A DNA stretch of 64,000 nucleotides from an uncultured Planctomycetales bacterium (GTDB lineage Bacteria; Omnitrophota; Gorgyraeia; Gygaellales; JAHJCI01): positions 95,935 to 159,934 of the forward strand of contig CAZQEY010000001.1 in NCBI GenBank assembly GCA_964592485.1, written 5' to 3'. The position numbers and the translations under genes are program-made. Position 1 is the stretch's first letter, and every line of letters starts with the position of its first letter. Positions 3,310 to 40,209 of the stretch are shown here, one piece after another. Below the pieces are notes generated by a model. The model was not told where the DNA came from, ran no database searches, and saw nothing but the letters and a program-made list of their open reading frames with translations.

Positions 3310-4155
3310 CTAAAGTGGCTCTAAAATAAAGAAATTAAAATAGCTTCCCTCATTTTTATGAGTCAAACCCAATGGTTTAAAATAATTTATAGGAAAATTA
3401 TCGCAAAACCTCAAAAATGCATAACTTATTATCTTTTTAAAATCAGCAGTAGAAAACTCAAAGACATGGCAATCAACATCCCTTACCGAAGACTCCGACC
3501 ACCCTCCCTTATTAATATCCAGCATTTTTAGATTCTTCCAATAATCCAAATCATAAATAATTGTTCTTTCTACATATGGTATGGACAAAAATATCCTTTT
3601 TTTTGTCACTCTCCTTAATTCTTTTAGGGCTTGGACTGGATTTGGTATATGTTCGATACACTCAAAACAAAAGGTGTATTCAAAAGACTTATCCCCAAAG
3701 GGAAGCTGCTCGATATCTCCTACCTCTGCCTCTATACCACTTTTCTTTATAAATTCTACCACGTCAGGATTGATATTTACTGAAAGACCTCTGCGCCTCA
3801 TCGCACGCAAAAGAATCCCACTAGTATCTCCGATATCAGCTACAGCTATATTATTATCAAAAAGCTGAGGATAATATTCTAAAAAAAACTTGTATATCCG
3901 ATAATATCTTATTTGATTTATAAACAAGTCTGGGTGTTCCCTGGTTTGCCTCATGGGTTCGTATACGTAATGATTATTTAAATCTTCCTGAGGAAATAAT
4001 TCTTGAATTTCCGGCGTGGAATTAATTAACATATGGAGCTTTTCATAAAGCCTACTAATATATATATTGTATAGTCTCTTTATAAATGAAAACACAGAAC
4101 TGGGAAGCATCCGCTTTACAATAGATTTTATGTTCATAATTTCATTAATTAACAA
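3310..4155 (-). CDS. class I SAM-dependent methyltransferase
   Basis: Motif I-like VADIGDTSGILL, followed by the acidic and hydrophobic motifs (ECIEHIPNP) typical of Methyltransf_11/23. Confidence 0.65.
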   Translation of the reverse strand: MLINEIMNIKSIVKRMLPSSVFSFIKRLYNIYISRLYEKLHMLINSTPEIQELFPQEDLNNHYVYEPMRQTREHPDLFINQIRYYRIYKFFLEYYPQLFDNNIAVADIGDTSGILLRAMRRRGLSVNINPDVVEFIKKSGIEAEVGDIEQLPFGDKSFEYTFCFECIEHIPNPVQALKELRRVTKKRIFLSIPYVERTIIYDLDYWKNLKMLDINKGGWSESSVRDVDCHVFEFSTADFKKIISYAFLRFCDNFPINYFKPLGLTHKNEGSYFNFFILEPL

Positions 4156-5645
4156 TACTTCTGCTGATAGATATCTCTAAGTTGTTTAAATTTCGCATTT
4201 CCCACTTCATCAAATTTCTCAGCCCTGTTGATTTCGTTCCAGAACTGCTTAGACATCTTTACATACATCACAAAAGTTCGCATAAGACCTCGAATCTCTT
4301 GGTTTAATAATTGTGGCATCTCAAGAATGCTGCCCAGTGTCACACATATCGGTAAGGGCAAATCTTCTCTGATAAATCCATTTTTTTTACAGACTTCATA
4401 CAATTCAGTACCCTTGAAGGGATAAAATGCATAAGCATTACAGCTATCAAAAATAGTCTTTCTATTTAACTCAATAGTATCAAATATCAATTCCCTTGTT
4501 TCAAAAGGAAAACCAATTATATTATTTACCGTCAAAGGAATACCAGCCTCATTTATTATTTTAGTAGCTTCTATAAATATTTCATTATCAAACTCTTTCT
4601 TTAATACCCTTTTTCTAAACTCAGGATTACCATGTTCAAGACCTATTGACATTCGATGGCAACCTACACTTTTAAGTCGCCTCATTCTATCTGGCTTAAC
4701 AGTTTCGGGCCTGGTCTGAATCCAAAAGGGGAGTTTAAACTCTGAATACATCTCTATAAATTCATCAAATTCCCTGTCAGACATTACCAGGAAAGTATCG
4801 GAGGCAAAATATATATATTCGGCCTGCCATTTATCAATCAGGAATTTTAGTTCTTGATGTATTTTTTTTATGCTTTTTTTCCTGAAAAAATTGTGTACAT
4901 TATTGTTCCTATATAGCTTGGCAATAGTCGGAGAATTGCAGAATGTGCAATGAAAAAGGCAACCCCTATTGGTCTCCATAGGAACCATTCTATATACCCC
5001 TCCTGCCATTGGCCGATATAATCTGCGAGAGTCAAAAACACTGTAGTCAGGTATAGGTAGAGAGTTTAAATCTACAATTCCATTCAAAGCATTCCTAATA
5101 ATTCTGCCATCGTTTTTCTTTACCCATAAATTCTTAATTCTCGTATAATCTCTTGCTTCAGCTAAACTTTCGCATAACTCTAATAAGGCAATCTCGCCTT
5201 CCCCAACACATACGAAGTCAACAGAAGGATTCGCTATAGCCTCATCAGGAGCTACAGTAGGAAATACCCCTCCTGCTACTACCGGTATTTTATAATCCTC
5301 AATGGCCTCCAACATTCTAGACCCCATATGATACGTCCCTTCCAATGCCGATAGAGCAATAAGATTGGGTTTAAAATCTTCTACTTTTGCTCTAAGATCC
5401 TGGAACATATCTCCTTTGTTCGAGTAAATACCCCTTTCCTGAAAACTAAAAGGTTTTACTTGCAAATGTTCTAACTTTGCTAAATCAGAATTAATCGTTT
5501 CTGTTTCATAAAATGTGCTATCAAATACATCAACTTCAATCCTGCGCTCTTTCAATATAGCAGCCATAATGCCTATAGCAATAGGGGGTGGATTAAGAAA
5601 AGGCTCATTAGGATAAAGAAACAGGACTTTAAATTTAGAATTCAC
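4149..5645 (-). CDS. cobalamin (B12)-binding radical SAM enzyme (class B rSAM)
   Basis: N-terminal B12-binding-like Rossmann region, then a CxxxCxxC cluster motif (RGCLFHCTFCNS). It is a paralog of the rSAM at 35075-36571 (shared IKNLWVKK, CVGEGE and DLNSLP blocks). Confidence 0.85.
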   Translation of the reverse strand: MNSKFKVLFLYPNEPFLNPPPIAIGIMAAILKERRIEVDVFDSTFYETETINSDLAKLEHLQVKPFSFQERGIYSNKGDMFQDLRAKVEDFKPNLIALSALEGTYHMGSRMLEAIEDYKIPVVAGGVFPTVAPDEAIANPSVDFVCVGEGEIALLELCESLAEARDYTRIKNLWVKKNDGRIIRNALNGIVDLNSLPIPDYSVFDSRRLYRPMAGGVYRMVPMETNRGCLFHCTFCNSPTIAKLYRNNNVHNFFRKKSIKKIHQELKFLIDKWQAEYIYFASDTFLVMSDREFDEFIEMYSEFKLPFWIQTRPETVKPDRMRRLKSVGCHRMSIGLEHGNPEFRKRVLKKEFDNEIFIEATKIINEAGIPLTVNNIIGFPFETRELIFDTIELNRKTIFDSCNAYAFYPFKGTELYEVCKKNGFIREDLPLPICVTLGSILEMPQLLNQEIRGLMRTFVMYVKMSKQFWNEINRAEKFDEVGNAKFKQLRDIYQQKYC

Positions 5646-7645
5646 CCTTCTACGCTCCTGAGGAGATTATCATAGTATTGTTTGTCGTCTAAATAAATAT
5701 TCAAATATTTATTTAAGAATTTTCTATAACCATTCCCGTCAATATCTCGCCTATTTTGCATAATACGAATCACAGTATTAAATAACTCAACTGGATTATT
5801 TATATATATTGCTAAATTACTAAGCTTAGATAAAGGGCAAAGGTCAATTATACTATAAAGAGAGGGAACGATAACCGGAATACCATTGTAAATTGCCCAG
5901 AAAACCGAAGAAGACTCCTTTACAATCATTGCTTTTGATTCCGGTATAATCTCTTGCAAACGCTTATTTGTAAACTTAAATACCTTGCTGTTTATATCCA
6001 ACCCCATCCTCCTAGCCACCTTCTGGATAGGGTCGCAAGGATGCGTCTTAAGTAAGATATCGAAGTTTAAATTCTTGTCATTAAAGGCATGAAATAATAA
6101 CAGTAGCATTTCTCGATTCTCAAGCGGACAAAGAGAAAACGGCACGACAACCTGACCCTTTCTCCTTTCCTTTATGGTTAAGATATCTGGAGATTCTCTA
6201 AAATCATGAAATCTAAATCCGCCTAAAATAAATAATTTTTCTCTAGGCCAACAACCCTGAAGAAGAATATCTCTGGTGATACTCCCTACACAACCCAAAT
6301 AATCTGGGGCAGGACAATATTTTACATAGTCATTTCCCCTTAAATCCTCTGGATGGTCGAAATAATTAAGCATTAACAACGGCACTATTGAATGTTGCAT
6401 CCCAACACATGTAATATCTCCTCTTTTTGCACAGGCAACAATTAATGCTTTCTCCCAGGATTGCATCTCTGCAAAATAAAGCACTTTTATATATTTGGGG
6501 AGATCTTCAATAATGTTTGAAAATGCTATGTAATTGCTAATTCCCCAAATAAGTATTTTGCCCATAAAAGATGACAGAAAATCCTTCTTAAGTATTTCCC
6601 ATAAATTTATCCTGAGATTAGTAACAGGATCCCGATAAACAAAGTGAGCTCTATATCTATTTAGATTTATCAATGCCCTGACAGATAAGAGAAAATAGGT
6701 AAAAATAATTCTACTGAATTCTTTATATCCTAACCATTCTTCCAGTATAAAAAATTTACTGTTTTCTTTAACCCTCTTGGCTATCTTCAAAGTCTTAGAC
6801 CAATTATATGAGTTTATAGGAACGAACATCCCCAGCCATGCTACTTTGTTTTTATGATTACTCTCTATAGAATTTTGAAGAGAGCCATAAGCCAGATTGA
6901 CAAATCTTCCATCTTTAAGTTTTGTTTCATCAACAGAAGGAAAAGCAGTGACAGCCAAAATCTTGGAATCACGGAGATATTCTCTTTGATTTTTAAAGCG
7001 CCTCTCTAACCTCTTAGCGCCAATGGCTCTTTGTAATAGTGCCAGAATAAATTTTGCCACTCTTAACATTTCTATGAATATTAATTTAATCTCTCCCGTA
7101 TAGCCATGATAACTTCTGTAGCCAGAAATAGATACGAAATCATCTAGTCCAGAAGCAGATAATACATTGCCAATTACACCATTTTTTCTATTTAACCATA
7201 TTTGTTCACACCCTAATTCATTTTTTAAATGTAATATAGTCAAAATTTTGCAAAACTTAGTGAAAGCAGAGCTTTTATAAGGATTCTTTTCTGCAATTAA
7301 GGAAAACCACCATACAGAAAATTCACCAGAAGGATAAGTGAAATATCTTTTTAAATTTATACCATTAAAAAAATCCTTTTCTCCGAGTTCATGAATAAAG
7401 TTTATATATTCCTGTTTTAACTCAAACGCCTTTTTATTAAACCTATATATAAAATCTACTAACTCAGCTTCTATAGTAGTTTTTTTCTCTAAAGATTTCT
7501 TAAGCTGTTGGGCAAGTCTATCCGCATTATATTCAATCGGACATAAGAAAACTTCCTCTATATTATTATTATCGCCAGAAATCCTCCTCAAAACTTCAGT
7601 CTCTCTGTCTCTTCCTGTGAGTACCAGTAAAATTCTTTTGCCCAT
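5642..7645 (-). CDS. large hypothetical protein with a TagF-like (CDP/CMP-donor GT-B) C-terminal domain
   Basis: C-terminus has an HP motif (KTHPCDP) and ...MIVKESSSVFWAIYNGIPVIV. This resembles the catalytic His-Pro and D-Y-S-S...P-V-I blocks of TagB/TagF glycerophosphotransferases and the HP motif of bacterial sialyltransferases. Its 4-nt overlap with the downstream rSAM suggests co-translation. Confidence 0.45.
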   Translation of the reverse strand: MGKRILLVLTGRDRETEVLRRISGDNNNIEEVFLCPIEYNADRLAQQLKKSLEKKTTIEAELVDFIYRFNKKAFELKQEYINFIHELGEKDFFNGINLKRYFTYPSGEFSVWWFSLIAEKNPYKSSAFTKFCKILTILHLKNELGCEQIWLNRKNGVIGNVLSASGLDDFVSISGYRSYHGYTGEIKLIFIEMLRVAKFILALLQRAIGAKRLERRFKNQREYLRDSKILAVTAFPSVDETKLKDGRFVNLAYGSLQNSIESNHKNKVAWLGMFVPINSYNWSKTLKIAKRVKENSKFFILEEWLGYKEFSRIIFTYFLLSVRALINLNRYRAHFVYRDPVTNLRINLWEILKKDFLSSFMGKILIWGISNYIAFSNIIEDLPKYIKVLYFAEMQSWEKALIVACAKRGDITCVGMQHSIVPLLMLNYFDHPEDLRGNDYVKYCPAPDYLGCVGSITRDILLQGCWPREKLFILGGFRFHDFRESPDILTIKERRKGQVVVPFSLCPLENREMLLLLFHAFNDKNLNFDILLKTHPCDPIQKVARRMGLDINSKVFKFTNKRLQEIIPESKAMIVKESSSVFWAIYNGIPVIVPSLYSIIDLCPLSKLSNLAIYINNPVELFNTVIRIMQNRRDIDGNGYRKFLNKYLNIYLDDKQYYDNLLRSVEG

Positions 7646-7684: not shown

Positions 7685-8572
7685 CTATTTCCTTATCTTA
7701 ATACCTCTATCATGCTCATGTATAGACTGTAATAATTCCAAGATTCCCTGGCCAAGATCTACGTAACTTGAATTAACTAACCGCTTAGCCAATTTTGGTC
7801 TAAAATTATAAGGGGTTATCTCATAATGCTCCTCGTAATCCTCTTTCGTAAACTCTAATTCAATTTCGTTATTCATCATCTCTTTAATCATTATTAACAG
7901 ATCCTTAATTCGCATGGGTTGATGCCCTGATATCATTACATATTGATTTTTAAACTCATCATCCAATATCTTAACACTTAGACGTGCAGCATCATAAACA
8001 TGTATGTACTCTCGTAACTCTTCGCCATCTCCCCTGCGTGTAATCTTCTTCTCAATTAGAGCTTGCATTAAAGTGTTGTAAATCCAGTTGCGCGCGTCAG
8101 CTCGAGGACCATATAAAGACCCATATCTTAAAATAGTGAAATCGATGTTATGCTGTTTATGGTAACATTCAATTATCAATTCACAGGCCTGTTTGCTGGC
8201 TCGATAGTACGACCCTGCCTGGCTATAAACATATACAGTACTGGCGAATATAAAACGTTTAACGTTGTTCAAACAACAAGCTTCCAATATATTCGTGGTG
8301 CCAATAACATTGGTGGTGATGGTATTGTAGGGTTGAGATTTTGCTTCACCGATATCTGCAACTCCTGCAAAATGATATACCACATCCACCCCTTTAGTAA
8401 TCCTTTCAACCGCTTCTGAATCCAAAATATTTCCTACCACCATTTCTTGTGTAGGTTTTAGATAAAGCGTTGGTTTTATGTCACAGATAATGACTTGGTG
8501 ATTGTTCTCAGAAAGACAGTCAGCTACATGACTACCCAAAAAACCTGAACCTCCAAAAACTACTACTTTCAC
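7685..8572 (-). CDS. NAD-dependent epimerase/dehydratase (extended SDR)
   Basis: MKVVVFGGSGFLGSHVADCL Rossmann motif, plus YxxxK context (YYRASKQACE). Confidence 0.8.
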   Translation of the reverse strand: MKVVVFGGSGFLGSHVADCLSENNHQVIICDIKPTLYLKPTQEMVVGNILDSEAVERITKGVDVVYHFAGVADIGEAKSQPYNTITTNVIGTTNILEACCLNNVKRFIFASTVYVYSQAGSYYRASKQACELIIECYHKQHNIDFTILRYGSLYGPRADARNWIYNTLMQALIEKKITRRGDGEELREYIHVYDAARLSVKILDDEFKNQYVMISGHQPMRIKDLLIMIKEMMNNEIELEFTKEDYEEHYEITPYNFRPKLAKRLVNSSYVDLGQGILELLQSIHEHDRGIKIRK

Positions 8573-8640: not shown

Positions 8641-9279
8641 TTATAATGAAACTAGTGAAGCATCTAGCATATTTAGATTATCTAATCGATGTTGACAGTT
8701 CACTAATTCTTTAGATTCAGAATTAATTCGTGCAATAAAATATACACCTGTATCTCCAGCAGCCTTTAAGTCTGTTATAGAATCGCCTATGAAAACGACC
8801 TCCCGCGGGGAATAGTTATTGCGTGAGATGATGCCAAGAATAATCTCTGTTTTTGAGGGAGGTGAACCATATACTTCCTTAAAATAATCACACAACTCTC
8901 GTTTTGTTACAATGTAATTAAGTTCTTCCTGGGGAGTACCCGAGGCTACAAAAAGAGAGTACTTTTTACAATTTGCTTTAAGGAACTCAATTGCACCAGT
9001 AACAAACGGTGCATTCAGTACCTCCTCTAACACTATGCTAGAAAACTTCCTGCCTAATTCCTCTTCCTGCTGAACAGATAAAGATAATCTTAATATATTT
9101 TTATAGATATACTTGAATTTTACATATCGAGATATACCCATATTCTGAATGTGATGATTTACTATTGCATTTATTTTTTTAGGATAATCTTGTTCAAAAA
9201 GTCTTCTGAAAGCTACTGTTTTAATATCAGCTGATTCGATTATTACGCCATCTAAATCAAAAATAATTGCTTTTATCAT
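8641..9279 (-). CDS. HAD-superfamily hydrolase (subfamily IA phosphatase-like)
   Basis: HAD motif I IIFDLDGVIIES and C-terminal motif VFIGDSITD. I placed the start at ATG 9279, which forms an ATGA overlap with the upstream stop; the track start at 9303 is a TTG. Confidence 0.8.
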   Translation of the reverse strand: MIKAIIFDLDGVIIESADIKTVAFRRLFEQDYPKKINAIVNHHIQNMGISRYVKFKYIYKNILRLSLSVQQEEELGRKFSSIVLEEVLNAPFVTGAIEFLKANCKKYSLFVASGTPQEELNYIVTKRELCDYFKEVYGSPPSKTEIILGIISRNNYSPREVVFIGDSITDLKAAGDTGVYFIARINSESKELVNCQHRLDNLNMLDASLVSL

Positions 9280-9938
9280 TCGAAAATTCCTGCTACCGTA
9301 CAAGGAACACTATCTACCCCTTCTACCCTAAGCGGCGCAACCCAAACCTCTTTTAAATTCTTGGTATTCTCTGGTATATCCATATCCTCTATAAGCAATA
9401 TAGGATGCCCTTCTCCTTCTGGATTTAAAAATGCTCTATGTGCTTCTCTTCCTAATTCACGGTGTTGATAAGATGATATAGAAACCCAATCAAAACCTAT
9501 AGCCCTGAGTAAAGGACGTTCTCTCCTCAACCACACTCCTAACTCTGGATTAATACCTGGATTTCGAAGACTGTAGACCTCATCTCCTCTTAATCTTCTC
9601 CAGCCAGATCTTAAAAGTAATAAATCAGCTTCTGGATTAATTTGGGCGGTTAAATCTTTATAAGATAAAATTTGTGCAGGTTGCACTTTTATTGACAATA
9701 CCTGTGGCTTGCGGAATAGCCAAAAATCTGCTTCATAATCAATAATTCTTGCGCCATTGACAAAAAAGTGAGCTGGGCAATCTATATGGGTTCCCCAATG
9801 ATTCTCCATTCCTATCCAATAAACCTGACAAGAATCACCATTCTCGATTGACTTCACCTGTCGTACTCTCATATTTTTTTTAATTGAACCATAAACAGGA
9901 ATCTGTGCCGATAATTTGTAGGACAGGTATTTTATCAT
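9276..9938 (-). CDS. putative cyclase / kynurenine-formamidase-family metal hydrolase
   Basis: HWGTHIDCPAHF matches the HxGTHxDxPxH signature of the cyclase family. Confidence 0.65.
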   Translation of the reverse strand: MIKYLSYKLSAQIPVYGSIKKNMRVRQVKSIENGDSCQVYWIGMENHWGTHIDCPAHFFVNGARIIDYEADFWLFRKPQVLSIKVQPAQILSYKDLTAQINPEADLLLLRSGWRRLRGDEVYSLRNPGINPELGVWLRRERPLLRAIGFDWVSISSYQHRELGREAHRAFLNPEGEGHPILLIEDMDIPENTKNLKEVWVAPLRVEGVDSVPCTVAGIFE

Positions 9939-10846
9939 TACTCCCTTAATCCCCCCAGTAGGTTTCTTGCCGCTTGCATTTCCATCTCTACCCTTGCCTC
10001 TTTGGCATAAGAGCCTATGTGAGGAGTCAAAACAACATTCTCCAACTCATGAAGCCGCCCCTTGTAAGGTTCCTCAGTAAATACATCCAAAGCAGCCCCG
10101 GCAAGATGCCCTCCACGAATAGCTCTATATAAGCCATCTTCGTCCACAGCGGTTCCGCGTGAGACATTTACCAGCCAGGCCCCTTTTTTCATCTGTGATA
10201 ATTCCTGTTCTCTTAATATCTTATCATTGCCTGAAATGTGGATTGAGACGATATCAGCCCATTGAAGTAACTCTCTAAGAGACAAGCGCTCCAACCCTAA
10301 CAATCTATCTGCAACATAGGGATCGTTATAAACTATCTTACAAGCAAAAGGTTTTAACAATTCAGCGACCTTCTGACCAATACGACCAAAACCTATTATT
10401 CCCACTCTTTTCTGGTAAAGCAGATTTCCCATCAGCTTTTCCCATCTTTCATTTTTAATGGCGACATTCATAAGATTGATTTTTCTCAAAAGATTTAAAA
10501 TCAATCCTACAGTTAACTCAGCCACTGCAAGGGTTGGTGCATCTGGAGTATTAAATACCTTTATTCCTAATCTCTTTGCGACATCCAGGTCAACATTATC
10601 AAGACCTGCACCGCAACGCGAAATAACCTTCAGGTTAGTCAATCTCTCCATAATATCAGAGCCTAGTACTTCGGTCCCTGAAATAATACCAACGACATCT
10701 CTGCATATATTTATAACCTCATCTTTATTTAATCTCCTACCATACGGATTCAATATTACAGCCATTCCTTTCCTTTCTAAAAGGCTTAATGGCGCTTTAT
10801 CGTATTTGCCAAATGATGTCGTTGTGATAGCGATTCTCTTATTCAT
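9938..10846 (-). CDS. D-isomer-specific 2-hydroxyacid dehydrogenase (short SerA/GhrA-like)
   Basis: NAD-binding GIIGFGRIGQKVAE. Catalytic-region blocks NVSRGTAVDE and ALDVFTEEP are typical of D-2-hydroxyacid dehydrogenases. Confidence 0.85.
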   Translation of the reverse strand: MNKRIAITTTSFGKYDKAPLSLLERKGMAVILNPYGRRLNKDEVINICRDVVGIISGTEVLGSDIMERLTNLKVISRCGAGLDNVDLDVAKRLGIKVFNTPDAPTLAVAELTVGLILNLLRKINLMNVAIKNERWEKLMGNLLYQKRVGIIGFGRIGQKVAELLKPFACKIVYNDPYVADRLLGLERLSLRELLQWADIVSIHISGNDKILREQELSQMKKGAWLVNVSRGTAVDEDGLYRAIRGGHLAGAALDVFTEEPYKGRLHELENVVLTPHIGSYAKEARVEMEMQAARNLLGGLRE

Positions 10847-11789: not shown

Positions 11790-11796
11790 TCTATAT

Positions 11797-12732: not shown

Positions 12733-12738
12733 AATACG

Positions 12739-14303: not shown

Positions 14304-14338
14304 ACTAACATTCCCCTTTATTTTATATTGCAGACACA

Positions 14339-15888: not shown

Positions 15889-16314
15889 TTATTTATGGCC
15901 TTCTATAAATACATGTTCCACATCCGGTTTAGTAATTGCAAACCGAATACCTGGCTCTTTCCCTACAACTTTAATACAATGCTTTTTATTATTCTTCACA
16001 AGAACTATATCATTCTCATATACCTTTTTAGTCCCTTCTCCCTCAATAAACCATTCCCATTCACCTTTTATAATAACCCAGCATTCGTCTGTATCAGGGT
16101 GATAATGCAACCTATTACCTTCTCCGGGCTTCTGAGCAATCAAAACACCACCAAATCGTTCATTATATACTATTCTCACTGCCCATGGCGGCTCTCCCAT
16201 TTTCCTGCCAATCTCTTCAAAAGATGTAACCGATTTATTGGCAGAACTATTAATATCTACATTTGCAATCCCGTCATCATGAAATATTTTATACAGGTTT
16301 TTCTCTCCATCCAT
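15889..16314 (-). CDS. cupin-domain protein
   Basis: HYHPDTDECWVIIKGEWE plus a downstream His, typical of cupin_2 metal-binding motifs. Confidence 0.55.
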   Translation of the reverse strand: MDGEKNLYKIFHDDGIANVDINSSANKSVTSFEEIGRKMGEPPWAVRIVYNERFGGVLIAQKPGEGNRLHYHPDTDECWVIIKGEWEWFIEGEGTKKVYENDIVLVKNNKKHCIKVVGKEPGIRFAITKPDVEHVFIEGHK

Positions 16315-26950: not shown

Positions 26951-26988
26951 ATTTTACCCCTCTGCCTAAGTTACTTTTTATTAAATCT

Positions 26989-28568: not shown

Positions 28569-28596
28569 CTAGAATTATTTCCTCAGTTTTTATTTA

Positions 28597-29649: not shown

Positions 29650-29656
29650 CGTATCC

Positions 29657-30277: not shown

Positions 30278-30293
30278 TGATATTCTCTTTTTT

Positions 30294-32509: not shown

Positions 32510-33297
32510 CCCCCATCCACAACTAGGTTATGGCCTGTTACATATGTGGAAAGGTCGCTGGCAAGATATACAACAGCACCTTTTATATCCTCTTCAGTTG
32601 CCATACGTTGTAACGGTGTGCGATTAATATAACGTGACAAAAATGGCTCCTTATGATTTCTCATTACGCCTCCAATAGTAATTGCATTAACTCGAACTGC
32701 TGGAGCAAGCACTGCTGCCAGCCAACGCGTAAGCTGAAGCAAACCTCCTTTACTTGTACTGTAGGCTGCAGGATTGCCCAAATTAGTATCCTCATACAAC
32801 CGCATATCAGGAGCAACCATTCCATAAATTGAGCCAATATTAATAACTGACCCTTTGCCCGAAGCGCGTAAAGCCTTCTCGCAGCTCTGCACAAGAACAA
32901 ATATCGATGTTAGATTTACTTCCAAAACCTTTTGCCAAGTTTGTACGGATTGCTCCTGAAAACGAACATTCCATCCCTTCAAATCAGACTCACCTACAAA
33001 AGCTGCGCAATTCACAAGAATATCCAATCTCCCAAATTTTTCCAATACTTTGGTACAAACCTTCTTCACTTCATCAACTTTAGCTAAATCTATCAGAAGT
33101 GGCATAACTTCAACATTATATACCTTCTGAATACTCTCTACCTTCTCAAAACAAGCCTTTTTATTGCAATCAAGCAACACAACACAGGCTCCGACTTCTG
33201 CCACTGCTTCTGCCATGATAGAACCGATATGCCCGGCTCCTCCAGTAATTAACGCAACTCTTCCCTCTAAACTCATCAATTCCTGAACAGATCTCAT
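32494..33297 (-). CDS. classical SDR oxidoreductase
   Basis: VALITGGAGHIGS glycine motif and the catalytic YSTSKGG context. Confidence 0.8.
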   Translation of the reverse strand: MRSVQELMSLEGRVALITGGAGHIGSIMAEAVAEVGACVVLLDCNKKACFEKVESIQKVYNVEVMPLLIDLAKVDEVKKVCTKVLEKFGRLDILVNCAAFVGESDLKGWNVRFQEQSVQTWQKVLEVNLTSIFVLVQSCEKALRASGKGSVINIGSIYGMVAPDMRLYEDTNLGNPAAYSTSKGGLLQLTRWLAAVLAPAVRVNAITIGGVMRNHKEPFLSRYINRTPLQRMATEEDIKGAVVYLASDLSTYVTGHNLVVDGGWTVW

Positions 33298-34004
33298 TAA
33301 TTCCTCTCCTTCTTTCTTATTAAAAATTCAGCAATTTCCAAATCCAAAGAAGTATCAATATCCAATGCCCTATACGCAGGAACTATTACTGCCTTTACCT
33401 TTCCTGCAAACAACGATGACATTTGGCAAACATATGAAGCACGTGCAGCATACGCAACAGTAGTCATATCATATACCAGAGGAGCATCCTGACGCCGATT
33501 AATAATAGTTTGTGATTGAATAACCAGCTGCGCATTATCTTCGTCATCAAGAGTAACCATATTAAAATACGGATTGCGCCCTGCTTCTTTTACCGTGATA
33601 ACAATATCGGCATCACTATTTAATAACCGCTCAATACAGGCCTGAACATCTTCAACTGCACGCAAAGGAGATGTGGGAGGAATAGATACTAACACATCAA
33701 CTTTATTTCCTGTTTGTTTTTCAATCGTCTCAACTGCATGCCTCCAGGCCAGTAGTACAGATGCATCATCAGTGGATAATTGCGCAGGTCTCCTAAAGGG
33801 AACTTCGGCACCATAGCGTTGTGCAATTGCCGCGATTTCCTCATCATCCGTAGAAACGATAAGCTTATCAATCAAAGAGACAGCACGACCAACTTCAATC
33901 GCATAGGCAATGAGTGGCTTACCAGCTAATTCTTTAATATTCTTACATGGTAGGCCCCTGGAGCCTCCACGCGCAAAAATTGCACCCAACACATAAGGTT
34001 TCAT
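33297..34004 (-). CDS. acylneuraminate cytidylyltransferase (CMP-nonulosonate synthetase, NeuA/LegF-like)
   Basis: LGAIFARGGSRGLPCKNIKELAGKPLIAY matches the NeuA N-terminus. Confidence 0.85.
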   Translation of the reverse strand: MKPYVLGAIFARGGSRGLPCKNIKELAGKPLIAYAIEVGRAVSLIDKLIVSTDDEEIAAIAQRYGAEVPFRRPAQLSTDDASVLLAWRHAVETIEKQTGNKVDVLVSIPPTSPLRAVEDVQACIERLLNSDADIVITVKEAGRNPYFNMVTLDDEDNAQLVIQSQTIINRRQDAPLVYDMTTVAYAARASYVCQMSSLFAGKVKAVIVPAYRALDIDTSLDLEIAEFLIRKKERN

Positions 34005-35005
34005 AATGAAATTACTTCGTGAGTTTCTGCCGAATGTCGCGCTGCATTTATCATCCTAACCACACGCCTAGCCTCGTCTATTGATACCAACGGCTCTTGA
34101 TTATTAGCGACACATTGAAAAAAGTGCTTCAACTCTGTTTTGTACATCTCGTTCCTGTCTAATTTACCTGGTGTGCACAAATCAGTCCAATTACCAGTAT
34201 CAACAGAATACAGTTGCACGCGATTATCGCCATCGAAATTCCACACCACTGTTCCTTTGGTCCCAACCACACGGCAGGAGCGGTTCGCTGCATAGTCTAT
34301 CATATCAAGATGAATATTACCTAAAGCGCCGTTCTCAAACCTCAAACAAATTTCAGCTATATCCTCAACATCAATCTCCAAATCACTAACCTTACCCAGC
34401 AAAGCGCGTATCTGGGTCACCTCACCCGCTAACCACCGCACATAATCTAACTCATGACTCAACTCAAACAAAACACCGCCACCTAAATCTTTACGTGCGC
34501 TAACTTTATCTTGATAATTCTCTCCAGGACGCCAATTTAACAGATTCTGCCCAACAGATGCCTTAACCGACAAAACTCTTCCTATACAACCCTGCTCCAA
34601 TGCTTTTTTTAAAATTTTAATCGGCTCAAAGAATCGTAATACATATCCAATCATTACTACAAGCTTACGCCTCCTTGACTCTTGCAATAATTCATCTAAG
34701 CCATCATCATTAACTGATAATGGTTTTTCAATAAACAAATGGCTATCTTGTTTGGCAAACATTAACGCTGTCTGGCAATGCATTGTAACAGGATTCGTTA
34801 TAAAAGTAACACTGGGTTTCCATCTTAGCGCATCATCCTGAGAAAAAAACACATTCTCTACTAATGGCTGTAATTCACCCAAAGCAGCTTCTTGAGAAAA
34901 CTGTCTGTAAACTGCTATCTGAATGTTGGCATCAATACTCTTTATGTTCTTAATGTGCCGATTCGCTATACTTCCCAACCCCACAACTAAGATTTTCATA
35001 CTCAT
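34001..35005 (-). CDS. Gfo/Idh/MocA-family NAD(P)-dependent oxidoreductase
   Basis: MKILVVGLGSIANRH N-terminal Rossmann fold with the EKP motif (FIEKPL). Confidence 0.8.
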   Translation of the reverse strand: MSMKILVVGLGSIANRHIKNIKSIDANIQIAVYRQFSQEAALGELQPLVENVFFSQDDALRWKPSVTFITNPVTMHCQTALMFAKQDSHLFIEKPLSVNDDGLDELLQESRRRKLVVMIGYVLRFFEPIKILKKALEQGCIGRVLSVKASVGQNLLNWRPGENYQDKVSARKDLGGGVLFELSHELDYVRWLAGEVTQIRALLGKVSDLEIDVEDIAEICLRFENGALGNIHLDMIDYAANRSCRVVGTKGTVVWNFDGDNRVQLYSVDTGNWTDLCTPGKLDRNEMYKTELKHFFQCVANNQEPLVSIDEARRVVRMINAARHSAETHEVISL

Positions 35006-35074: not shown

Positions 35075-36571
35075 TTAATCATTTTTTTCATACTCCTGCA
35101 AATATTTTATTAGTTCAGGGAATACCCTTTGTGCAAGTTGTTCGTCTTTCTCACATTTTTCAAGGATAGGAAAAAATTGTTCTGGAAGTTTAGTGTAAAA
35201 TGAAAAGGTTCTTACTAAACCGTTGATTTCATCTCTATTTAAATGAGGTGAATCTAAATTTGCTTTGACACTGCTATAATCTGGAGTTTCTTTTAAGAGC
35301 CCAAACTCCTTTGTAATTTCCGCCAAGCGTGTTTTTGGATACGGATTATAAGCCGCCACAGAAGAAGTGGCTGGCTTAACTTTTCGGTTCAGATGAATAG
35401 TATCAAATACCATCTGCCTTGTTTCAAAGGGTAGTCCTATCATATTATAAGCCGACACTCTTATACCGCTTCTCTTTACAATCTCGTATTTTTTAATAAT
35501 TTCCCCATCAGATATATCTCTATTAAGGACATATTTCCTTACCCAAGGATTCCCACTTTCAATAGCCATTGCCATTGTGATGCAACCCATTTCTTTAAGA
35601 CAATCTACTTTTTCTTCTGTCACTGTTCGTGTTCCAGCGTAAACAATAAAAGGTAAACCGACTTCTTTCTTATAAAGCTTAGCTAATTCTCTTAAATAAC
35701 TAACCGGGAATATTGTAAAATCTTCATCCCAAAATCTAATTGCATTAAATTGATATCTGTCCTTTAATTCTTTAAGCTGCCTTACGGCTACTCTCGGGCT
35801 TTTTCGTCTGTGATAACTCCCACATCCGCTAAATAGTTCCTGTAAGAAATGATTTGAACAGTAGGAACACTTGAATACACATCCTCGACTAATCTCGGTA
35901 TTCATCATCTTGTATATCTTGCCATCAAGAGGACGATAAAAATCATATTCACAAAAATCAGAGAAATCCTGAGCCGGAAGAGTATCTAAATCCTTTAAAT
36001 TTCGCAGTGGATTTTTGTAAATAGTCTCTGGGTTCTTTTTATCTTTTATCCATAAATTTTTAATTTTATTTATGGGCTTCTTCTGGAACTTCTCACAAAG
36101 TTCAACCAGTGCATCTTCGCCTTCACCAACACAAATAATGTCGATGGATCCCTCCTTAATAACTTCGTCAGAACAAATCGTTGGATGAATTCCGCCAATA
36201 ATAATAGTATTTTCCGGAAAATGTTTCTTAATGATTCTACTGCATTTTAAGCCTAGGGGATAAGTACCAGATGTAGTAGTTATACCAACAATATCAGCTT
36301 TGAACTCATCCATAGTATGAACTAAATCTTCCTCGAGAGATTCTATCGCTTTGCGCGGCGCAGGAGTAATTGGTGGAGGTGGAGCGGGTTTAAACATCCC
36401 AAATGATTCCTTAATCGATTGTAAATTTACCTGGGGAACATATTCTGAACAATCAAAAACTGCTACAGAATGACCTTCGGCTCTCAATACAGCACTCAAT
36501 GTAGTTAGGGCTATGGGGATATCTCCGTGTTCGTGAATTTGGGGATAAATAAATAATACTCTCATACGCAA
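35075..36571 (-). CDS. cobalamin (B12)-binding radical SAM enzyme (class B rSAM)
   Basis: CxxxCxxC (RGCVFKCSYCSN) after a B12-binding-like domain. It is a paralog of 4149-5645. Confidence 0.85.
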   Translation of the reverse strand: MRMRVLFIYPQIHEHGDIPIALTTLSAVLRAEGHSVAVFDCSEYVPQVNLQSIKESFGMFKPAPPPPITPAPRKAIESLEEDLVHTMDEFKADIVGITTTSGTYPLGLKCSRIIKKHFPENTIIIGGIHPTICSDEVIKEGSIDIICVGEGEDALVELCEKFQKKPINKIKNLWIKDKKNPETIYKNPLRNLKDLDTLPAQDFSDFCEYDFYRPLDGKIYKMMNTEISRGCVFKCSYCSNHFLQELFSGCGSYHRRKSPRVAVRQLKELKDRYQFNAIRFWDEDFTIFPVSYLRELAKLYKKEVGLPFIVYAGTRTVTEEKVDCLKEMGCITMAMAIESGNPWVRKYVLNRDISDGEIIKKYEIVKRSGIRVSAYNMIGLPFETRQMVFDTIHLNRKVKPATSSVAAYNPYPKTRLAEITKEFGLLKETPDYSSVKANLDSPHLNRDEINGLVRTFSFYTKLPEQFFPILEKCEKDEQLAQRVFPELIKYLQEYEKND

Positions 36572-36599: not shown

Positions 36600-37775
36600 C
36601 TAACTAAAAAAGGTCTTTATATTCTCTACAACGAAATTTACTTCTTCTTCTTTTAAATTAACACTACAGGGCAAATTGATACAACAATTATATGCCTGCA
36701 CAGCCTGCTTAACGCCATAACTTTGAAACTGGTTGTACATCGGTAAAGTATGCATCAACTTCCATATCGCCCTGACTTGAATTTCTCTTGCAATAAGATA
36801 TTCTATCAAGGCTATTCTGTATTTCTGCGGCACTTTTATAGTATAAAACCAGAAATTACTCTTTGCCCATGATTCCTCCCATAAGAACTCAATTTCATGC
36901 AACCCTGATAATAACTCCCTGTATAGAATAGCATTATTCCTTTTAATAGCTAAGAAATCGTGTAATCTTTCCATTTGGGCAACACCCAAAGCTGCTTGTA
37001 TGTTAGTAAGACGATAATTATAACCGATCTCATCATGCTCCTGTTCATAAACATGTTCCCGTTTTGCCTGTGTTGTTAGATGCCTAATCCGTTGTGCTAA
37101 ACACTGATCATCTGTAACTACCATCCCTCCGCCGCCTGTGGTTATAATTTTGTTTCCGTTAAAAGAGAAACAACCAACTTCTCCTATTGAACCTGTCTTT
37201 TTTCCTTTATATTCGGAGCCAAGACTTTCAGTAGCATCTTCAATTATAGTAATATTATATTTCTGAGATATTTCTAATAATGAGTTCATATCTACAGGAT
37301 GACCAAATATATGTACTGGGATAATTGCCTTTATTCTTCTACAAGTCTTTTTGTTATAAGCATATCCTTCCTTAGTACGTCTACACTCATTGACTAAAAA
37401 ATCAGCCACCTTTTGGATATCCATACATAGTGTTTTAATATTACAGTCCATAAAGACAGGGCTTGCCCCACAATATCTAATGGCATTTACTGGCGCAATA
37501 AAGGTAAGTGTGGGAACGATAACCTCATCATTAGGCTTAACTCCACATGCCATAAGACTTACGTGCAGCGCGGCTGTACCATTCACTGTAGCAACAGCAT
37601 ATTTAGCCCCTACATAATCGGCTACAAGATGTTCTATATTATTAACAAAAGTACCGGCTGAAGAAACCCAACCCGTATCAAGACACTCTTTTAAGTATTT
37701 CCATTCATTACCTGATATTTCTGGTTCCGATAAAGGGATTATATGTTTAATTGCAATATTAGACATTATAGACAT
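36600..37775 (-). CDS. DegT/DnrJ/EryC1/StrS-family PLP-dependent sugar aminotransferase (LegC/PseC-like)
   Basis: The N-terminal region (LSEPEISGNEWKYLKECLDTGWVSS...VNGTAALH) and the lysine-containing GGGGMVV...K context are typical of DegT aminotransferases. Confidence 0.85.
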   Translation of the reverse strand: MSIMSNIAIKHIIPLSEPEISGNEWKYLKECLDTGWVSSAGTFVNNIEHLVADYVGAKYAVATVNGTAALHVSLMACGVKPNDEVIVPTLTFIAPVNAIRYCGASPVFMDCNIKTLCMDIQKVADFLVNECRRTKEGYAYNKKTCRRIKAIIPVHIFGHPVDMNSLLEISQKYNITIIEDATESLGSEYKGKKTGSIGEVGCFSFNGNKIITTGGGGMVVTDDQCLAQRIRHLTTQAKREHVYEQEHDEIGYNYRLTNIQAALGVAQMERLHDFLAIKRNNAILYRELLSGLHEIEFLWEESWAKSNFWFYTIKVPQKYRIALIEYLIAREIQVRAIWKLMHTLPMYNQFQSYGVKQAVQAYNCCINLPCSVNLKEEEVNFVVENIKTFFS

Positions 37776-38757
37776 CCCATTTATATCTATTAAGATTTTC
37801 TTTATGTTTAAACCATTTTATGGTTTCCAGAAGTCCTTCTTGTAAAGAAACTTTGGGCTTCCAATTGGTCAACTTTCTTATCAATCTATTGTCACACACC
37901 AAACGTTTGACTTCACTTCTACCTGGTCTTTTTCTTGCGACTTCACAAGTAATTCTTGCTTTAGGTTTTATCTGTTTTATTATTAGTCCTGCGAGGTCGC
38001 CGATAGTTGTCTCCTGACCTGATCCAATATTAACTACCTTACCAATAGCTTTATCGCATTTAACAAGAGCCATTAACCCTTCACAAATATCCTGTACGTA
38101 GTTAAAATCTCTTGTTGGGAAAAGTGAACCAAGTCTTATTTCGTTGTTTTCATTTAATAGCTGAGTAATTATAGTAGGAATAACTGCTCTTGCAGACTGC
38201 CGTGGACCGTATGTATTAAATGGCCTGGCAATTACCACCGGCAACCCAAAGGATCTATAGAAACTCTCTGCTACAGCATCAGCAGCGATTTTCGAGGCAG
38301 AATACGGAGATTGAGGCTGTAGCGGATGTTTCTCATCTATAGGAACATACTTGGCTGTGCCGTATACTTCAGATGTAGATGTAACAACTACCCGCTTAAT
38401 ATTATAATCGCGGCAGGCTTGCAGAATATTTAAAATACCTTTAATATTTGTATTCACATAAGAATCGGGGGAATGATAAGAAAACGGTATCCCTATTAAA
38501 GCTGCTAAATGAAAAACTACATCTATATCCTTTATTGCTCTTCTAACACCGTTATTATCCCGGATATCACCAGTAAAAACCTCTATTTTGTTTAATTTAT
38601 CCTTTGGAAAGGTATCAAGCCATCCCCAAGAATTAAAAGAATTATAATAAACAAAGGCTTTAACATTACAATTGGCCTTAAGTAAACTCTCTACTAAATG
38701 ACTGCCAATAAATCCACAAGCACCGGTAACTAAAATCCTTTTGCCTTTTAACTCCAT
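37759..38757 (-). CDS. NAD-dependent nucleotide-sugar dehydratase/epimerase (candidate LegB-like 4,6-dehydratase)
   Basis: RILVTGACGFIGSHLVESL and the YSASK catalytic motif. Adjacency to the aminotransferase suggests the 4,6-dehydratase step. Confidence 0.65.
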   Translation of the reverse strand: MELKGKRILVTGACGFIGSHLVESLLKANCNVKAFVYYNSFNSWGWLDTFPKDKLNKIEVFTGDIRDNNGVRRAIKDIDVVFHLAALIGIPFSYHSPDSYVNTNIKGILNILQACRDYNIKRVVVTSTSEVYGTAKYVPIDEKHPLQPQSPYSASKIAADAVAESFYRSFGLPVVIARPFNTYGPRQSARAVIPTIITQLLNENNEIRLGSLFPTRDFNYVQDICEGLMALVKCDKAIGKVVNIGSGQETTIGDLAGLIIKQIKPKARITCEVARKRPGRSEVKRLVCDNRLIRKLTNWKPKVSLQEGLLETIKWFKHKENLNRYKWDVYNV

Positions 38758-38772
38758 TTCTAATCCCTGTGA

Positions 38773-40209
38773 TTATTCTCCTTCTCGCTTATAATGCCTG
38801 GAGCCTCTAAACTTGTAATCTCCTTTAAAATATAAATTATAAAACTGATCAATCAGAACTTCAGTTTGGTTCACATCTTGATTTGTGTGTTTATAATAGT
38901 CTTCAATAAGTTCTTTATTGGCCTCGAATAAACACTCATAGAATCTTTTTTCTGAGATTTCTGTAAAATTAATTGTTAATAAATCTGAATTCTTGAATCG
39001 CTCAAAGAACTCCTCTGGGCCCGATAACAACCCTCTATCTATAGCCTCATAATATAAATCACAACCCGGATAAGGCGTAACTGGTCTTATAGTCCTAATT
39101 TGATTATAGGTATTATATTTCTTTATAAACGCGACATTATCCTTAAGAACCTCCTCAGTATCTCCTTTATTACCCCATAAAAAATTCAATCCCATTCCAA
39201 TGCCCACTTTTTTTGTAAGTTCTGCGGCTTTAATGTTCTGTTCCACTGTGGACTTTTTATTCATAAGGTCCAATACTCTTTGGCTTGAAGACTCCATACC
39301 AAAGTTAAGAAATGTACAACCGCAATCCTTTAACATCTCCAGCAAATCTTCATTCAGTACATCTACTCTAGCATTACAATCAAACTTTATTTTGAGATTA
39401 TTGGCCTTGAGAGAATCCTTAAGTTCTTTTATGCGTTTTTTTGAAAAAATAAATAATTCATCGGATAAAGAAAAATAAGTTATTCCAAAATCATTGTTTA
39501 ATACCTTCATCTCTTCAATAATACTTTCAATACTCCTGAGTCTAATGCCTTTCTCAATTCTATAACAAAAATTACATTTGCCAACGCAACCCCTGCTTGT
39601 CAAGAAACTTATATACCTATCGGTCTTTTCGTGATGAAAAAGTTTAATACAGGTAGCGTAATTATCAACTGGAAATAAGTTCCACTCAGGAAAAGGAATA
39701 TTATTTAAATTTTTAATGGGTTCTCGTCTCTCATTAATATAGCACCTACCGTTTTCTTTATATGCAATCCCTTTAATTTTAGAAAGCTTGCGCCCCCCGG
39801 CTATCTTGCAATGCAACAGTTCAACAATCGTCTCTTCTGCTTCTCCAATAGCTATAATATCTGCTTTGGTTTTATCTAGTATATATTCTGGGATAGGTGA
39901 GGGCCCATGGCCGCCTAACACCAAGTAAGCATTCTTTTTGCACTCATTTATAACCTTGCATAAATCAAGGATGGTTTCCTTAAATCTTGCTGCCATAAAA
40001 CCAATACCGATTAAATCAAACTCGTTCTCTAACAAAAACTTTGATAATTCTTCATTCGAATAATGAAAAACATCCTGCGAATATACAGTTACTTGGGCTC
40101 CCTCTTTTTTTAATACCGAGGCCAAATACCCTATACCCAGAGGAAATACGTTATCATCCTGATAAACATCATGAACTATTAAGAGTACTCTACCTAATTC
40201 TTTCTCCAT
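38773..40209 (-). CDS. cobalamin (B12)-binding radical SAM enzyme (class B rSAM)
   Basis: CxxxCxxC (RGCVGKCNFCYR). I placed the start at ATG 40209 with an AGGGAGA RBS; the track start at 40236 would overlap the upstream gene by 47 nt. Confidence 0.85.
   Translation of the reverse strand: MEKELGRVLLIVHDVYQDDNVFPLGIGYLASVLKKEGAQVTVYSQDVFHYSNEELSKFLLENEFDLIGIGFMAARFKETILDLCKVINECKKNAYLVLGGHGPSPIPEYILDKTKADIIAIGEAEETIVELLHCKIAGGRKLSKIKGIAYKENGRCYINERREPIKNLNNIPFPEWNLFPVDNYATCIKLFHHEKTDRYISFLTSRGCVGKCNFCYRIEKGIRLRSIESIIEEMKVLNNDFGITYFSLSDELFIFSKKRIKELKDSLKANNLKIKFDCNARVDVLNEDLLEMLKDCGCTFLNFGMESSSQRVLDLMNKKSTVEQNIKAAELTKKVGIGMGLNFLWGNKGDTEEVLKDNVAFIKKYNTYNQIRTIRPVTPYPGCDLYYEAIDRGLLSGPEEFFERFKNSDLLTINFTEISEKRFYECLFEANKELIEDYYKHTNQDVNQTEVLIDQFYNLYFKGDYKFRGSRHYKREGE

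Follow-up and report, generated by a model that had tools for sequence, protein, structure and literature searches.

The 64-kb window analysed here (the whole stretch of 64,000 nucleotides of contig CAZQEY010000001.1 from an uncultured Planctomycetales bacterium) encodes four radical S-adenosylmethionine (SAM) proteins, which we name A1 (4149-5645), B1 (20144-21535), A2 (35075-36571) and B2 (38773-40209), all on the minus strand. Their domains and motifs identify them as genuine class-B radical SAM enzymes from four distinct, widespread and uncharacterised orthogroups. We consider it probable that the four enzymes tailor glycans, and tentatively propose methylcobalamin-dependent C-methylation as the reaction. 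For the explanation as a whole, namely glycan-tailoring class-B radical SAM enzymes that are most likely C-methylating, we arrive at a probability of about 0.55, a compromise between a higher estimate for the glycan-tailoring role and a lower one for C-methylation.

All four proteins match the Pfam families PF02310 (B12-binding; 47.8-79.7 bits, cut-off 32.1) and PF04055 (Radical_SAM; 72.6-87.5 bits, cut-off 29.5), B1 with 79.7 and 78.7 bits, respectively. Each contains a single CxxxCxxC motif, which reads CLFHCTFC at residue 229 in A1 (498 amino acids), CPSNCSFC at residue 201 in B1 (463 amino acids), CVFKCSYC at residue 231 in A2 (496-498 amino acids) and CVGKCNFC at residue 208 in B2 (478 amino acids). 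The public protein for A2 has 496 amino acids and starts two codons downstream of the open reading frame (ORF) start, and a public protein of 478 amino acids is identical to the B2 product. The Cys triad is invariant in all three family alignments (one shared by A1 and A2, one for B1 and one for B2, with 25-29 homologues each).

By motif and fold comparison, a cobalamin-type Rossmann domain at the N-terminus of the four proteins is followed by a [4Fe-4S]/SAM barrel and, at the C-terminus, by a helical domain. Base-off cobalamin binding in OxsB, TsrM and TokK is associated with a G/A-x-S/T-x-X motif on the β3-α3 loop, with Gly-Gly on β4 and with Gly-Glu at the start of α5 (PMC9204698). All three features are kept in A1 (ALSAL 97-101, GG 125-126, GEGE 148-151), B1 (GITTT 69-73, GG 98-99, GEGE 121-124) and A2 (GITTT 96-100, GG 126-127, GEGE 149-152), and they are in register across these proteins in a four-way alignment; B2 keeps two of the three (GIGFM 68-72, GG 99-100, GEAE 122-125). 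The B1-family profile reaches OxsB, TsrM, TokK, CysS and MgmA via its N-terminal domain and places the motif positions on the corresponding OxsB and TsrM residues, and the N-terminal domain of the A-family profile matches TokK 64-214 and CysS 54-209. Cobalamin binding is predicted from these motifs and profile alignments, to which B2 conforms only in part (two of three motifs). The N-terminal domains are strongly conserved within each family alignment. AlphaFold (AF2) models of B1 and A2 (pLDDT 94 for both) match the folds of TsrM, MgmA (9ccb), AprD4, OxsB, CysS and TokK, and do not discriminate between a methylase and a dehydratase. An earlier interpretation of this DNA, made without database searches (hereafter the sequence-only reading), had assigned a B12-binding-like N-terminal domain and a CxxxCxxC motif to these ORFs and had placed them in class B; both assignments are borne out, the triad being kept in all four proteins and the cobalamin motifs deviating only in the first motif of B2.

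A1 and A2 are 32% identical over their full length (E 1e-89), and both have a C-terminal extension as well as an insertion of ~30 residues within the N-terminal domain. B1 and B2 are reciprocal best hits but share 29% identity (E 3e-50), and A2 is nearly as near to B1 (29%, E 3e-40). Closer relatives are found in other phyla for B1 (52-78% identity), B2 (61-71%) and A2 (64-76%), and the best relatives of A1 (47-52%) still exceed its 32% identity to A2. We thus regard the four as separate old orthogroups rather than in-locus duplicates. The sequence-only reading had seen two clear paralog pairs; A1/A2 stands as a pair with a common subfamily architecture, whereas the resemblance of B1 to B2 is weak. 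The families are large (2,087 related clusters at 50% identity and E ≤ 1e-30 for A1, >3,500 scored relatives for B1 and ~1,460 for B2) and recur in uncultured lineages such as the candidate phyla radiation (CPR), DPANN, Omnitrophota, SAR11 and Nitrospinae, with A1-like and B2-like genes also present in viral contigs. We had considered a cobalamin-independent A1 family on the grounds that SAR11 would be devoid of B12 metabolism, and dropped this idea as SAR11 is described as a B12 auxotroph.

Four such genes in one sugar locus had been judged highly atypical. Our comparison does not support this: at least two class-B radical SAM genes occur in 21/79 A-family loci and in 26/83 B1-family loci, and some metagenome contigs carry four full-length copies together with shorter fragments. 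Several class-B genes per locus are common in uncultured lineages, so that the copy number itself is unremarkable. Tandem arrays of three or four full-length genes are seen in the metagenome contigs L104, L099, L105, L106 and L149 (L numbers denote our comparative loci), mostly interleaved with family 2 glycosyltransferases (GT2) and membrane proteins with many predicted transmembrane segments, and with shorter fragments in some. A local profile search detected no radical SAM genes in the window beyond the four.

Pfam and NCBIfam profile scores, compared with curated cut-offs, show that the window is a single very large surface-glycan locus, in which nearly all large ORFs lie on the minus strand (GC 0.31-0.42). 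A2 is located directly after LegC inside a legionaminic-type (Leg) module (25.7-38.8 kb, minus strand; NCBIfam and Pfam). The LegB 4,6-dehydratase (37759-38757; TIGR04180, 495 bits versus a cut-off of 475) and the LegC aminotransferase (36600-37775; TIGR04181, 512 bits versus 420), both on the minus strand, sit between A2 and B2. The rest of the module (25754-35005, minus strand; by Pfam, and by NCBIfam for NeuB, NeuC and WbuX) comprises a WbuX amidotransferase, HisH, HisF, a CBS-nucleotidyltransferase, a PglD-type acetyltransferase, a NeuC-type epimerase, a NeuB-type synthase, a short-chain dehydrogenase/reductase (SDR), a cytidylyltransferase and a GFO/IDH/MocA oxidoreductase. NCBIfam scores are 483 bits for NeuB_NnaB (cut-off 400), 454 for NeuC_NnaA (cut-off 236) and 345 for WbuX (cut-off 203), and the Pfam matches include PglD_N, Hexapep and CTP_transf_3. 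The genes that mark a clustered Leg pathway are thus all present (LegB, LegC, NeuB-type LegI, NeuC-type LegG, an N-acetyltransferase and a cytidylyltransferase).

The position of A2 is conserved. In L171 a 69%-identical ortholog lies inside a Leg operon with the order LegC, CBS-nucleotidyltransferase, PglD-type acetyltransferase, radical SAM, NeuB, NeuC and SDR, followed by GFO, cytidylyltransferase, a WbuX homologue (by BLAST), HisH and HisF. A 64%-identical ortholog in L001 is found between a LegB-like dehydratase and sulfotransferase, NeuB, NeuC and cytidylyltransferase genes, and a 76%-identical relative in L170 shares its polysaccharide locus with genes for Wzy, a deacetylase, a SPASM radical SAM protein and another B12-type radical SAM protein. 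By this conserved neighbourhood, A2 is an extra enzyme inside legionaminic-acid-type operons. The Campylobacter CMP-legionaminic pathway (CMP, cytidine monophosphate; LegB, LegC, LegH, LegG, LegI, LegF and PtmE, with PtmA and PtmF) has its counterparts in the LegB, LegC, NeuB-type and NeuC-type genes of the window, and as in that pathway the block is operon-like and adds PglD-like, CBS-nucleotidyltransferase, SDR, GFO and cytidylyltransferase genes. Unlike in Campylobacter, two class-B radical SAM genes flank legB-legC, and A2 orthologs are embedded likewise in other Leg operons. We know of no radical SAM step in the canonical legionaminic pathway or in other known nonulosonic-acid pathways.

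The B2 family tolerates very little change (mean column identity 75%), and homologues with 61-71% identity to B2 are distributed across CPR bacteria, Omnitrophica, Deltaproteobacteria and Methanoregula. In the window B2 is bordered on its other side by a Capsule_synth-like (KpsC/KpsS-type) protein (40190-41755, minus strand; PF05159, 32 bits versus a cut-off of 20) and an MsbA-type ABC exporter (41805-43673, minus strand; ABC_membrane and ABC_tran). L089 keeps this order, with ABC (66% identity), Capsule_synth-like (57%), B2 (68%), LegB-like (60%) and aminotransferase genes, and with NeuB, NeuC and CBS-nucleotidyltransferase genes further downstream. The Capsule_synth-like and MsbA-type pair also adjoins the B2 ortholog in L088, and the Capsule_synth-like gene does so in L068 (Methanoregula). 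Orthologs in L087, L088 and L068 are located among NeuB, cytidylyltransferase and amidotransferase genes. Its recurrent neighbours (NeuB, cytidylyltransferase and LegC-like aminotransferase) mark B2 as a firmly conserved part of nonulosonic-acid cassettes, where genes for a KpsC/S-like transferase and an MsbA-like exporter often adjoin it.

A scan of viral contigs returned 18 B2-like genes with 36-50% identity. NeuB lies within a few genes of the B2-like gene in 14/18 contigs, and a NeuB, PseF-like or LegC-like gene is close in 16/18. The phage cassettes are compact, and their B2-like genes are often immediate neighbours of LegC-like aminotransferase and SDR genes; BLAST found no homologue of the window LegB or PseB-like proteins in these cassettes. 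In the two IMG/VR contigs that we checked for P22-type coat genes (L174 5848-13650; L187 5836-8835 and downstream), a P22-type major coat gene is found two genes upstream of the cassette in both, and the cassette comprises a cytidylyltransferase, the B2-like radical SAM protein, a LegC-like aminotransferase, an SDR (in L174, further radical SAM genes instead) and NeuB. This arrangement suggests phage-encoded synthesis of a modified nonulosonic acid, perhaps for attachment to the capsid. In L181, an MptE-like (PF01973) gene at 9239-9982 is located directly upstream of the radical SAM gene; we take this family to include the Maf flagellin glycosyltransferases.

One B2 ortholog stands in a different setting. 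In the NeuB-rich locus L088 (6339-11425; a Portnoybacteria-named cluster contig), the 66%-identical ortholog directly follows a cytidylyltransferase-phosphoenolpyruvate (PEP) mutase fusion, a thiamine-diphosphate-dependent decarboxylase-type gene and an Fe-alcohol dehydrogenase, presumably the equivalent of the Fom1/Fom2/FomC gene set, and a phosphonate-decorated glycan is possible for this locus. This arrangement would allow B2 to be a Fom3-like methyltransferase acting on CMP-2-hydroxyethylphosphonate, leading to phosphonate decoration and not to a modified nonulosonic acid. However, tblastn searches with the L088 genes found no PEP mutase, decarboxylase or Fe-alcohol dehydrogenase homologue in the window, and near the orthologs in L087, L089, L068 and the phage cassettes we see NeuB instead of phosphonate genes. 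We have set a Fom3-like role for B2 aside as very improbable.

A1 overlaps both neighbouring ORFs, by 4 and 7 bases, and is part of a third cassette (3.3-15.9 kb, minus strand) of KdsB-like, HpcH/HpaI, PGDH-like, HAD, cyclase, SDR and methyltransferase genes. Its partner is a TIGR04326-like surface carbohydrate biosynthesis protein of 667 amino acids (5642-7645; 194 bits versus a cut-off of 250), which has no Pfam match and is probably a transferase. Beyond it, in order of rising coordinates, all on the minus strand and by Pfam unless noted, lie an SDR/epimerase (7685-8572), a HAD protein (8641-9303), a cyclase (9276-9938), a PGDH-like 2-hydroxyacid dehydrogenase (9938-10846), an epimerase (10839-11822), a methyltransferase (11797-12732), a KdsB-like cytidylyltransferase (12739-13521; NCBIfam, 302 bits versus a subfamily cut-off of 255), an HpcH/HpaI aldolase (13518-14339), a second cytidylyltransferase (14339-15067) and an SDR (15120-15869). 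The KdsB-like gene overlaps that of the HpcH/HpaI-type pyruvate aldolase (12739-14339), which suggests that an aldolase, and not a NeuB-type synthase, makes a further, third CMP-activated 2-keto-3-deoxy acid.

We fetched 80 genomic loci with the A-family profile. Among the A1 relatives with at least 40% identity, glycan genes of the window type are found nearby in 28/32. Of the loci of these 32 close relatives, 23 have a TIGR04326-like gene (located by a local jackhmmer search), 17 a CTP_transf_3 cytidylyltransferase gene, 12 an SDR of the 7685 type, 11 a PGDH-like gene and 10 a HAD gene. The cassette genes recur next to A1-type genes in other phyla and in two viral contigs: L194 contains the A1 relative with the highest identity found (52%), the gene order being cytidylyltransferase, unknown, SDR, radical SAM, 2-hydroxyacid dehydrogenase and SDR, and the cassette in L204 adds HpcH and KdsB-like genes. 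A1 belongs to a portable sugar-acid cassette, usually with a TIGR04326-like putative transferase nearby. Cassettes elsewhere often include a class I/II aminotransferase and a SPASM-type radical SAM protein; the SPASM-domain genes (324-381 amino acids; L046 5296-6270, L065 11581-12726, L016 3521-4579 and L174 12622-13650) share their loci with A1-type class-B genes and class I/II aminotransferases and are absent from the window cassette.

The sequence-only reading had regarded A2 as the only one of the four inside a nucleotide-sugar pathway. This view has to be revised, as B2 abuts LegB in the window and in L089 and its relatives occupy NeuB/cytidylyltransferase/LegC-like cassettes in phage contigs, and A1 accompanies cytidylyltransferase, 2-hydroxyacid dehydrogenase and SDR genes, to which some loci add KdsB-like and HpcH aldolase genes. 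Across the comparative loci, the association with glycan and nonulosonic-acid genes is evolutionarily conserved and not peculiar to the window.

B1 (20144-21535) lies in a block at 18.4-22.3 kb on the minus strand. Its upstream partner, with a 4-base overlap, is a GT2 glycosyltransferase of 250 amino acids, putatively of the polyprenyl-phosphate-sugar synthase type (21532-22284; PF00535), whose best NCBIfam matches are PgfS, AglJ, ArnC and a dolichyl-phosphate hexose transferase, all below their cut-offs. The downstream partner is a polytopic, GT-C/PMT-like membrane protein with nine predicted transmembrane (TM) segments (18453-20132). Its link to the PMT family comes only from a local jackhmmer search that started from the PMT-family protein encoded next to the L083 ortholog of B1; its Pfam matches, to EpsG and PMT_2, are weak. 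In L083 (Omnitrophica) the order is GT2 (60% identical to the window GT2), radical SAM (56%), PMT-family GT-C and a second GT-C; in L086 (Lentisphaerae) it is radical SAM, PMT_2 and GT2. The triad recurs in Omnitrophica, Lentisphaerae and metagenome contigs. Of 17 distinct loci with orthologs of at least 44% identity, at least 10 have a GT2 gene, and ~13 a gene for a membrane protein of at least six predicted TM segments, within three genes of the B1 ortholog.

These neighbourhoods suggest that B1 is the middle gene of a GT2/radical SAM/GT-C module and acts on a polyprenyl-phosphate sugar. The arrangement would correspond to that of the ArnC-ArnD-ArnT, LgmA-LgmC-LgmB and FlmF2-NaxD-FlmK modules, with B1 located between a putative PgfS/AglJ/ArnC-type GT2 and a nine-TM GT-C-like protein. 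A deformylase or deacetylase makes the modification in those modules, whereas here it would be a class-B radical SAM protein with a putatively lipid-linked substrate. To our knowledge, no radical SAM enzyme has been described for polyprenyl-phosphate-linked sugars. In L085 (7512-13521; Pacearchaeota), a 55%-identical B1 ortholog has a PAP2 phosphatase gene on one side and a UbiA prenyltransferase gene on the other, after which come genes for an SDR and a flavin-type (Amino_oxidase) oxidoreductase; we take this gene set to resemble the mycobacterial decaprenyl-phospho-arabinose pathway.

Taken together, these contexts are compatible with the following scheme. Each enzyme would reductively cleave SAM to a 5'-deoxyadenosyl radical, which would take a hydrogen from an unactivated sugar carbon. 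The substrate of A1, A2 and B2 would be a nucleotide-linked or free ulosonic-acid precursor, with A2 and B2 working within or on the legionaminic-type pathway and A1 within a second pathway to a CMP-activated acid sugar. B1 would act on a polyprenyl-phosphate-linked monosaccharide at the cytoplasmic face, after the GT2 and before flipping and GT-C transfer, in parallel to the ArnC/ArnD/ArnT step, where a hydrolase acts instead of a radical enzyme. Methylcobalamin would then donate a methyl group to the substrate radical, yielding C-methylated sugars. Start/stop overlaps with glycan genes in the window suggest that the enzymes are co-translated with their partners.

We favour C-methylation since the cobalamin domain is intact and strongly conserved, and since methylation dominates among the known enzymes of this type. 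Most characterised B12-dependent radical SAM enzymes are methyltransferases, including the sugar- or CMP-linked GenK, GenD1 and Fom3, and GenK, Fom3, MoeK5 and GenD1 methylate sp3 carbons (PMC12931638). With their three domains, CxxxCxxC triad and base-off cobalamin motifs, the window proteins resemble GenK, GenD1/GntE, Fom3, TokK, CysS and MgmA. Like the sugar- and CMP-linked C-methyltransferases, they would act on carbohydrate or nucleotide-linked substrates. Enzymes of the GenK, GenD1 and Fom3 type belong to antibiotic or cofactor pathways, whereas the four are encoded in cell-surface glycan and nonulosonic-acid loci, and their methyl transfer is putative.

Several observations weigh against the proposed reading, and we set them out together with the alternatives that they favour. 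Substrates and products are deduced from gene neighbourhood only. The window contains no cobalamin riboswitch and no cobalamin genes, which is uninformative for only 64 kb, and an Rfam scan at gathering thresholds found no RNA family of any kind in it. No curated NCBIfam family cut-off is reached by any of the four proteins, so that they do not fall into a known non-glycan family either, a possibility checked because it bore on the sequence-only reading. The curated methyltransferase models (KedN5, PhpK, Sden_1168, RiPP C-MT, MgmA, HpnR and TsrM; RiPP, ribosomally synthesized and post-translationally modified peptide) likewise remain unreached, with best scores of 29-184 bits versus cut-offs of 282-750, and further weak matches are to P-methyltransferases and RiPP C-methyltransferases. 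The best NCBIfam matches of all four are BchE and HpnJ, neither of which is a methyltransferase.

These matches point to other cobalamin radical chemistry, such as epimerisation, ring contraction, carbon-skeleton rearrangement (HpnJ, OxsB) or oxidation/cyclisation (BchE). B1 aligns over its full length with BchE (TIGR02026, 252 bits) and HpnJ (TIGR03471, 232 bits), two non-methylating enzymes with a B12 domain. HpnJ remodels the sugar moiety of a hopanoid. The extra invariant cysteines that we find in the A family (C147 and C330) and in the B2 family (C84 and C298) could serve as hydrogen-atom donors. On the other hand, all four proteins stay far short of the equivalog cut-offs (481 and 578 bits), no hopanoid or bacteriochlorophyll/tetrapyrrole genes are found among the Pfam-annotated window genes, and such reactions are a minority among the characterised members (PMC12931638). 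We consider this chemistry unlikely for the four proteins.

A more serious alternative comes from AprD4 (PDB 6fd2), the 1,2-diol dehydratase of the apramycin pathway, which acts on a sugar. AprD4 is the closest solved barrel by sequence for A1/A2 and B2, being the top solved relative of A2, B2 and the A-family profile, and it also has the highest TM-score to the B1 model (0.77-0.80). The enzymes could hence catalyse radical deoxygenation, either by AprD4-like 1,2-diol dehydration followed by SDR reduction, or by a DesI/DesII-like sequence in which an amine is introduced by an aminotransferase and then eliminated by the radical SAM enzyme, providing extra-deoxy or keto sugars for ulosonic-acid pathways. 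The LegC-like aminotransferase and SDR that adjoin B2-like genes in phage cassettes devoid of LegB/PseB-like BLAST homologues fit such a route, as does the SDR near A1 (7685-8572), which has counterparts in 12/32 close loci. The first cobalamin motif of B2, in which Gly replaces Ser/Thr throughout the family, points in the same direction. However, the four proteins score 42, 92, 43 and 82 bits with the NCBIfam AprD4 model (NF033070; cut-off 500), over the barrel and C-terminal region only. The family profiles align AprD4 from ~residue 169 (B1 profile) or 199, again covering the barrel and leaving its N-terminal domain unaligned, and neither AprD4 nor ArsL binds cobalamin (PMC12931638). The N-terminal domains of the window proteins, in contrast, can be aligned with proven cobalamin-binding enzymes and retain the GG and GE motifs, and their strong conservation in each family would be unexpected if they were vestigial. 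We hold deoxygenation, the main rival, to be rather improbable for these proteins, and C-methylation remains our preferred, if tentative, assignment.

Other observations concern the glycan role itself. The closest genome-representative relatives of A2 (67% identity, in metagenome-assembled genomes of proteobacteria) lie outside any glycan locus, in an apparent, conserved four-gene operon (L002 8533-11488; L004 6438-9393) whose other members are a thioredoxin-like gene and two small genes of unknown function (167 and 178 amino acids), flanked by uracil phosphoribosyltransferase and NUDIX genes. A-family relatives with less than 40% identity to A1 (n = 29) are mostly found in other gene contexts. 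In one conserved context, that of a distinct clade, the radical SAM gene is accompanied by genes for a molybdopterin oxidoreductase, a TIM-barrel protein of the xylose-isomerase-like kind and a 3-hydroxyisobutyrate-dehydrogenase-like protein. A-family membership alone thus does not imply a glycan role, and we kept this clade apart from the glycan-association counts above, as the full locus set had diluted the rate. Some of the four could accordingly be merely embedded in the locus and act on a lipid, a protein or a cofactor, and the proximity of B2 to an MsbA-like, lipid-type exporter would agree with this. Yet each of the four keeps the same glycan partners in distant phyla, A1-like and B2-like genes do so also in phage contigs, and the window genes overlap glycan genes at their starts and stops. 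A non-glycan role is, in our estimate, quite improbable, and we retain glycan tailoring as the probable function of all four.

The clade 37-39% identical to A1 is represented in Scalindua, other Planctomycetota and Rhodospirillales. In L022 (4627-12828) and L036 (7067-12370) the radical SAM gene follows the molybdopterin oxidoreductase and the xylose-isomerase-like TIM-barrel gene, and in L036 the 3-hydroxyisobutyrate-dehydrogenase-like gene comes after it. The same pattern is seen in L015, L017-L020, L027, L031, L033, L038, L044 and L045, judged by gene sizes only and not by annotation. From these contexts, the clade looks like one with a different, non-glycan function.

The remainder of the window contains further sugar modules. 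A pseudaminic-type (Pse) module extends from 43.7 to 53.2 kb (PseI, 470 bits versus a cut-off of 340), and dTDP-rhamnose, UDP-sugar and mannose-1-phosphate genes follow at 53.7-64 kb (Pfam/NCBIfam). Sets of a WbuX/PseA-type amidotransferase with HisH/HisF occur twice, in the Leg-type (25754-28568) and in the Pse-type module (46239-48856), which implies acetamidino groups on both nonulosonic acids. In the Pse-type module, one ORF of 501 amino acids (44747-46252) combines a Glyco_tran_28_C-type domain with a GNAT acetyltransferase domain and looks like a PseG-PseH fusion. Three large proteins (521-688 amino acids) have little or no Pfam signal: the Capsule_synth-like 40190-41755; 16483-18456, a distant paralog of the TIGR04326-like protein with weak matches to the BFO_1060 glycosyltransferase family; and 23599-25665, which has no detectable family and has homologues in L053 and L071. 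Apparent gaps contain small minus-strand genes at 15889-16314, 53190-53633 and 55811-56158, which by eye only resemble a cupin (141 amino acids), an FdtA/WxcM-type sugar isomerase (147 amino acids) and a winged-helix, MarR-like protein (115 amino acids), respectively.

In the open-access literature we found no link between radical SAM enzymes and nonulosonic acids; the few co-mentions of radical SAM with pseudaminic or legionaminic acid appear irrelevant in the portions of those texts that we consulted, and open-access work on the anammox S-layer and polysaccharide contributed nothing useful. A 2026 review of B12-dependent radical SAM enzymes does not contain the words glycan, polysaccharide or sugar (PMC12931638). 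What appears to be new here are uncharacterised variants of a known enzyme class in nonulosonic-acid and lipid-linked sugar pathways, of which we found no description. It is conceivable, though doubtful at present, that the orthogroups represent an unrecognised branch of surface-glycan biosynthesis in bacteria, archaea and phages, in which cobalamin-type radical SAM enzymes would form C-C bonds on, or remodel unactivated carbons of, nonulosonic-acid precursors or, for B1, a polyprenyl-phosphate-linked sugar. Carbon-extended or C-methyl-branched legionaminic-type acids would be examples of products if C-C bonds are formed.

Nonulosonic acids such as sialic, legionaminic and pseudaminic acid decorate flagella, capsules, lipopolysaccharide, S-layers and archaeal pili, with effects on both immune recognition and the adsorption of phages. 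The C-methylated sugars predicted by the sequence-only reading are plausible. If methylation or deoxygenation of sugar carbons by these enzymes holds true, it would account for some of the so far unassigned mass diversity among environmental nonulosonic acids and would extend B12-dependent radical SAM enzymes to a new class of substrates. The four proteins would then be concrete, clonable candidates with defined partner genes for biochemistry.

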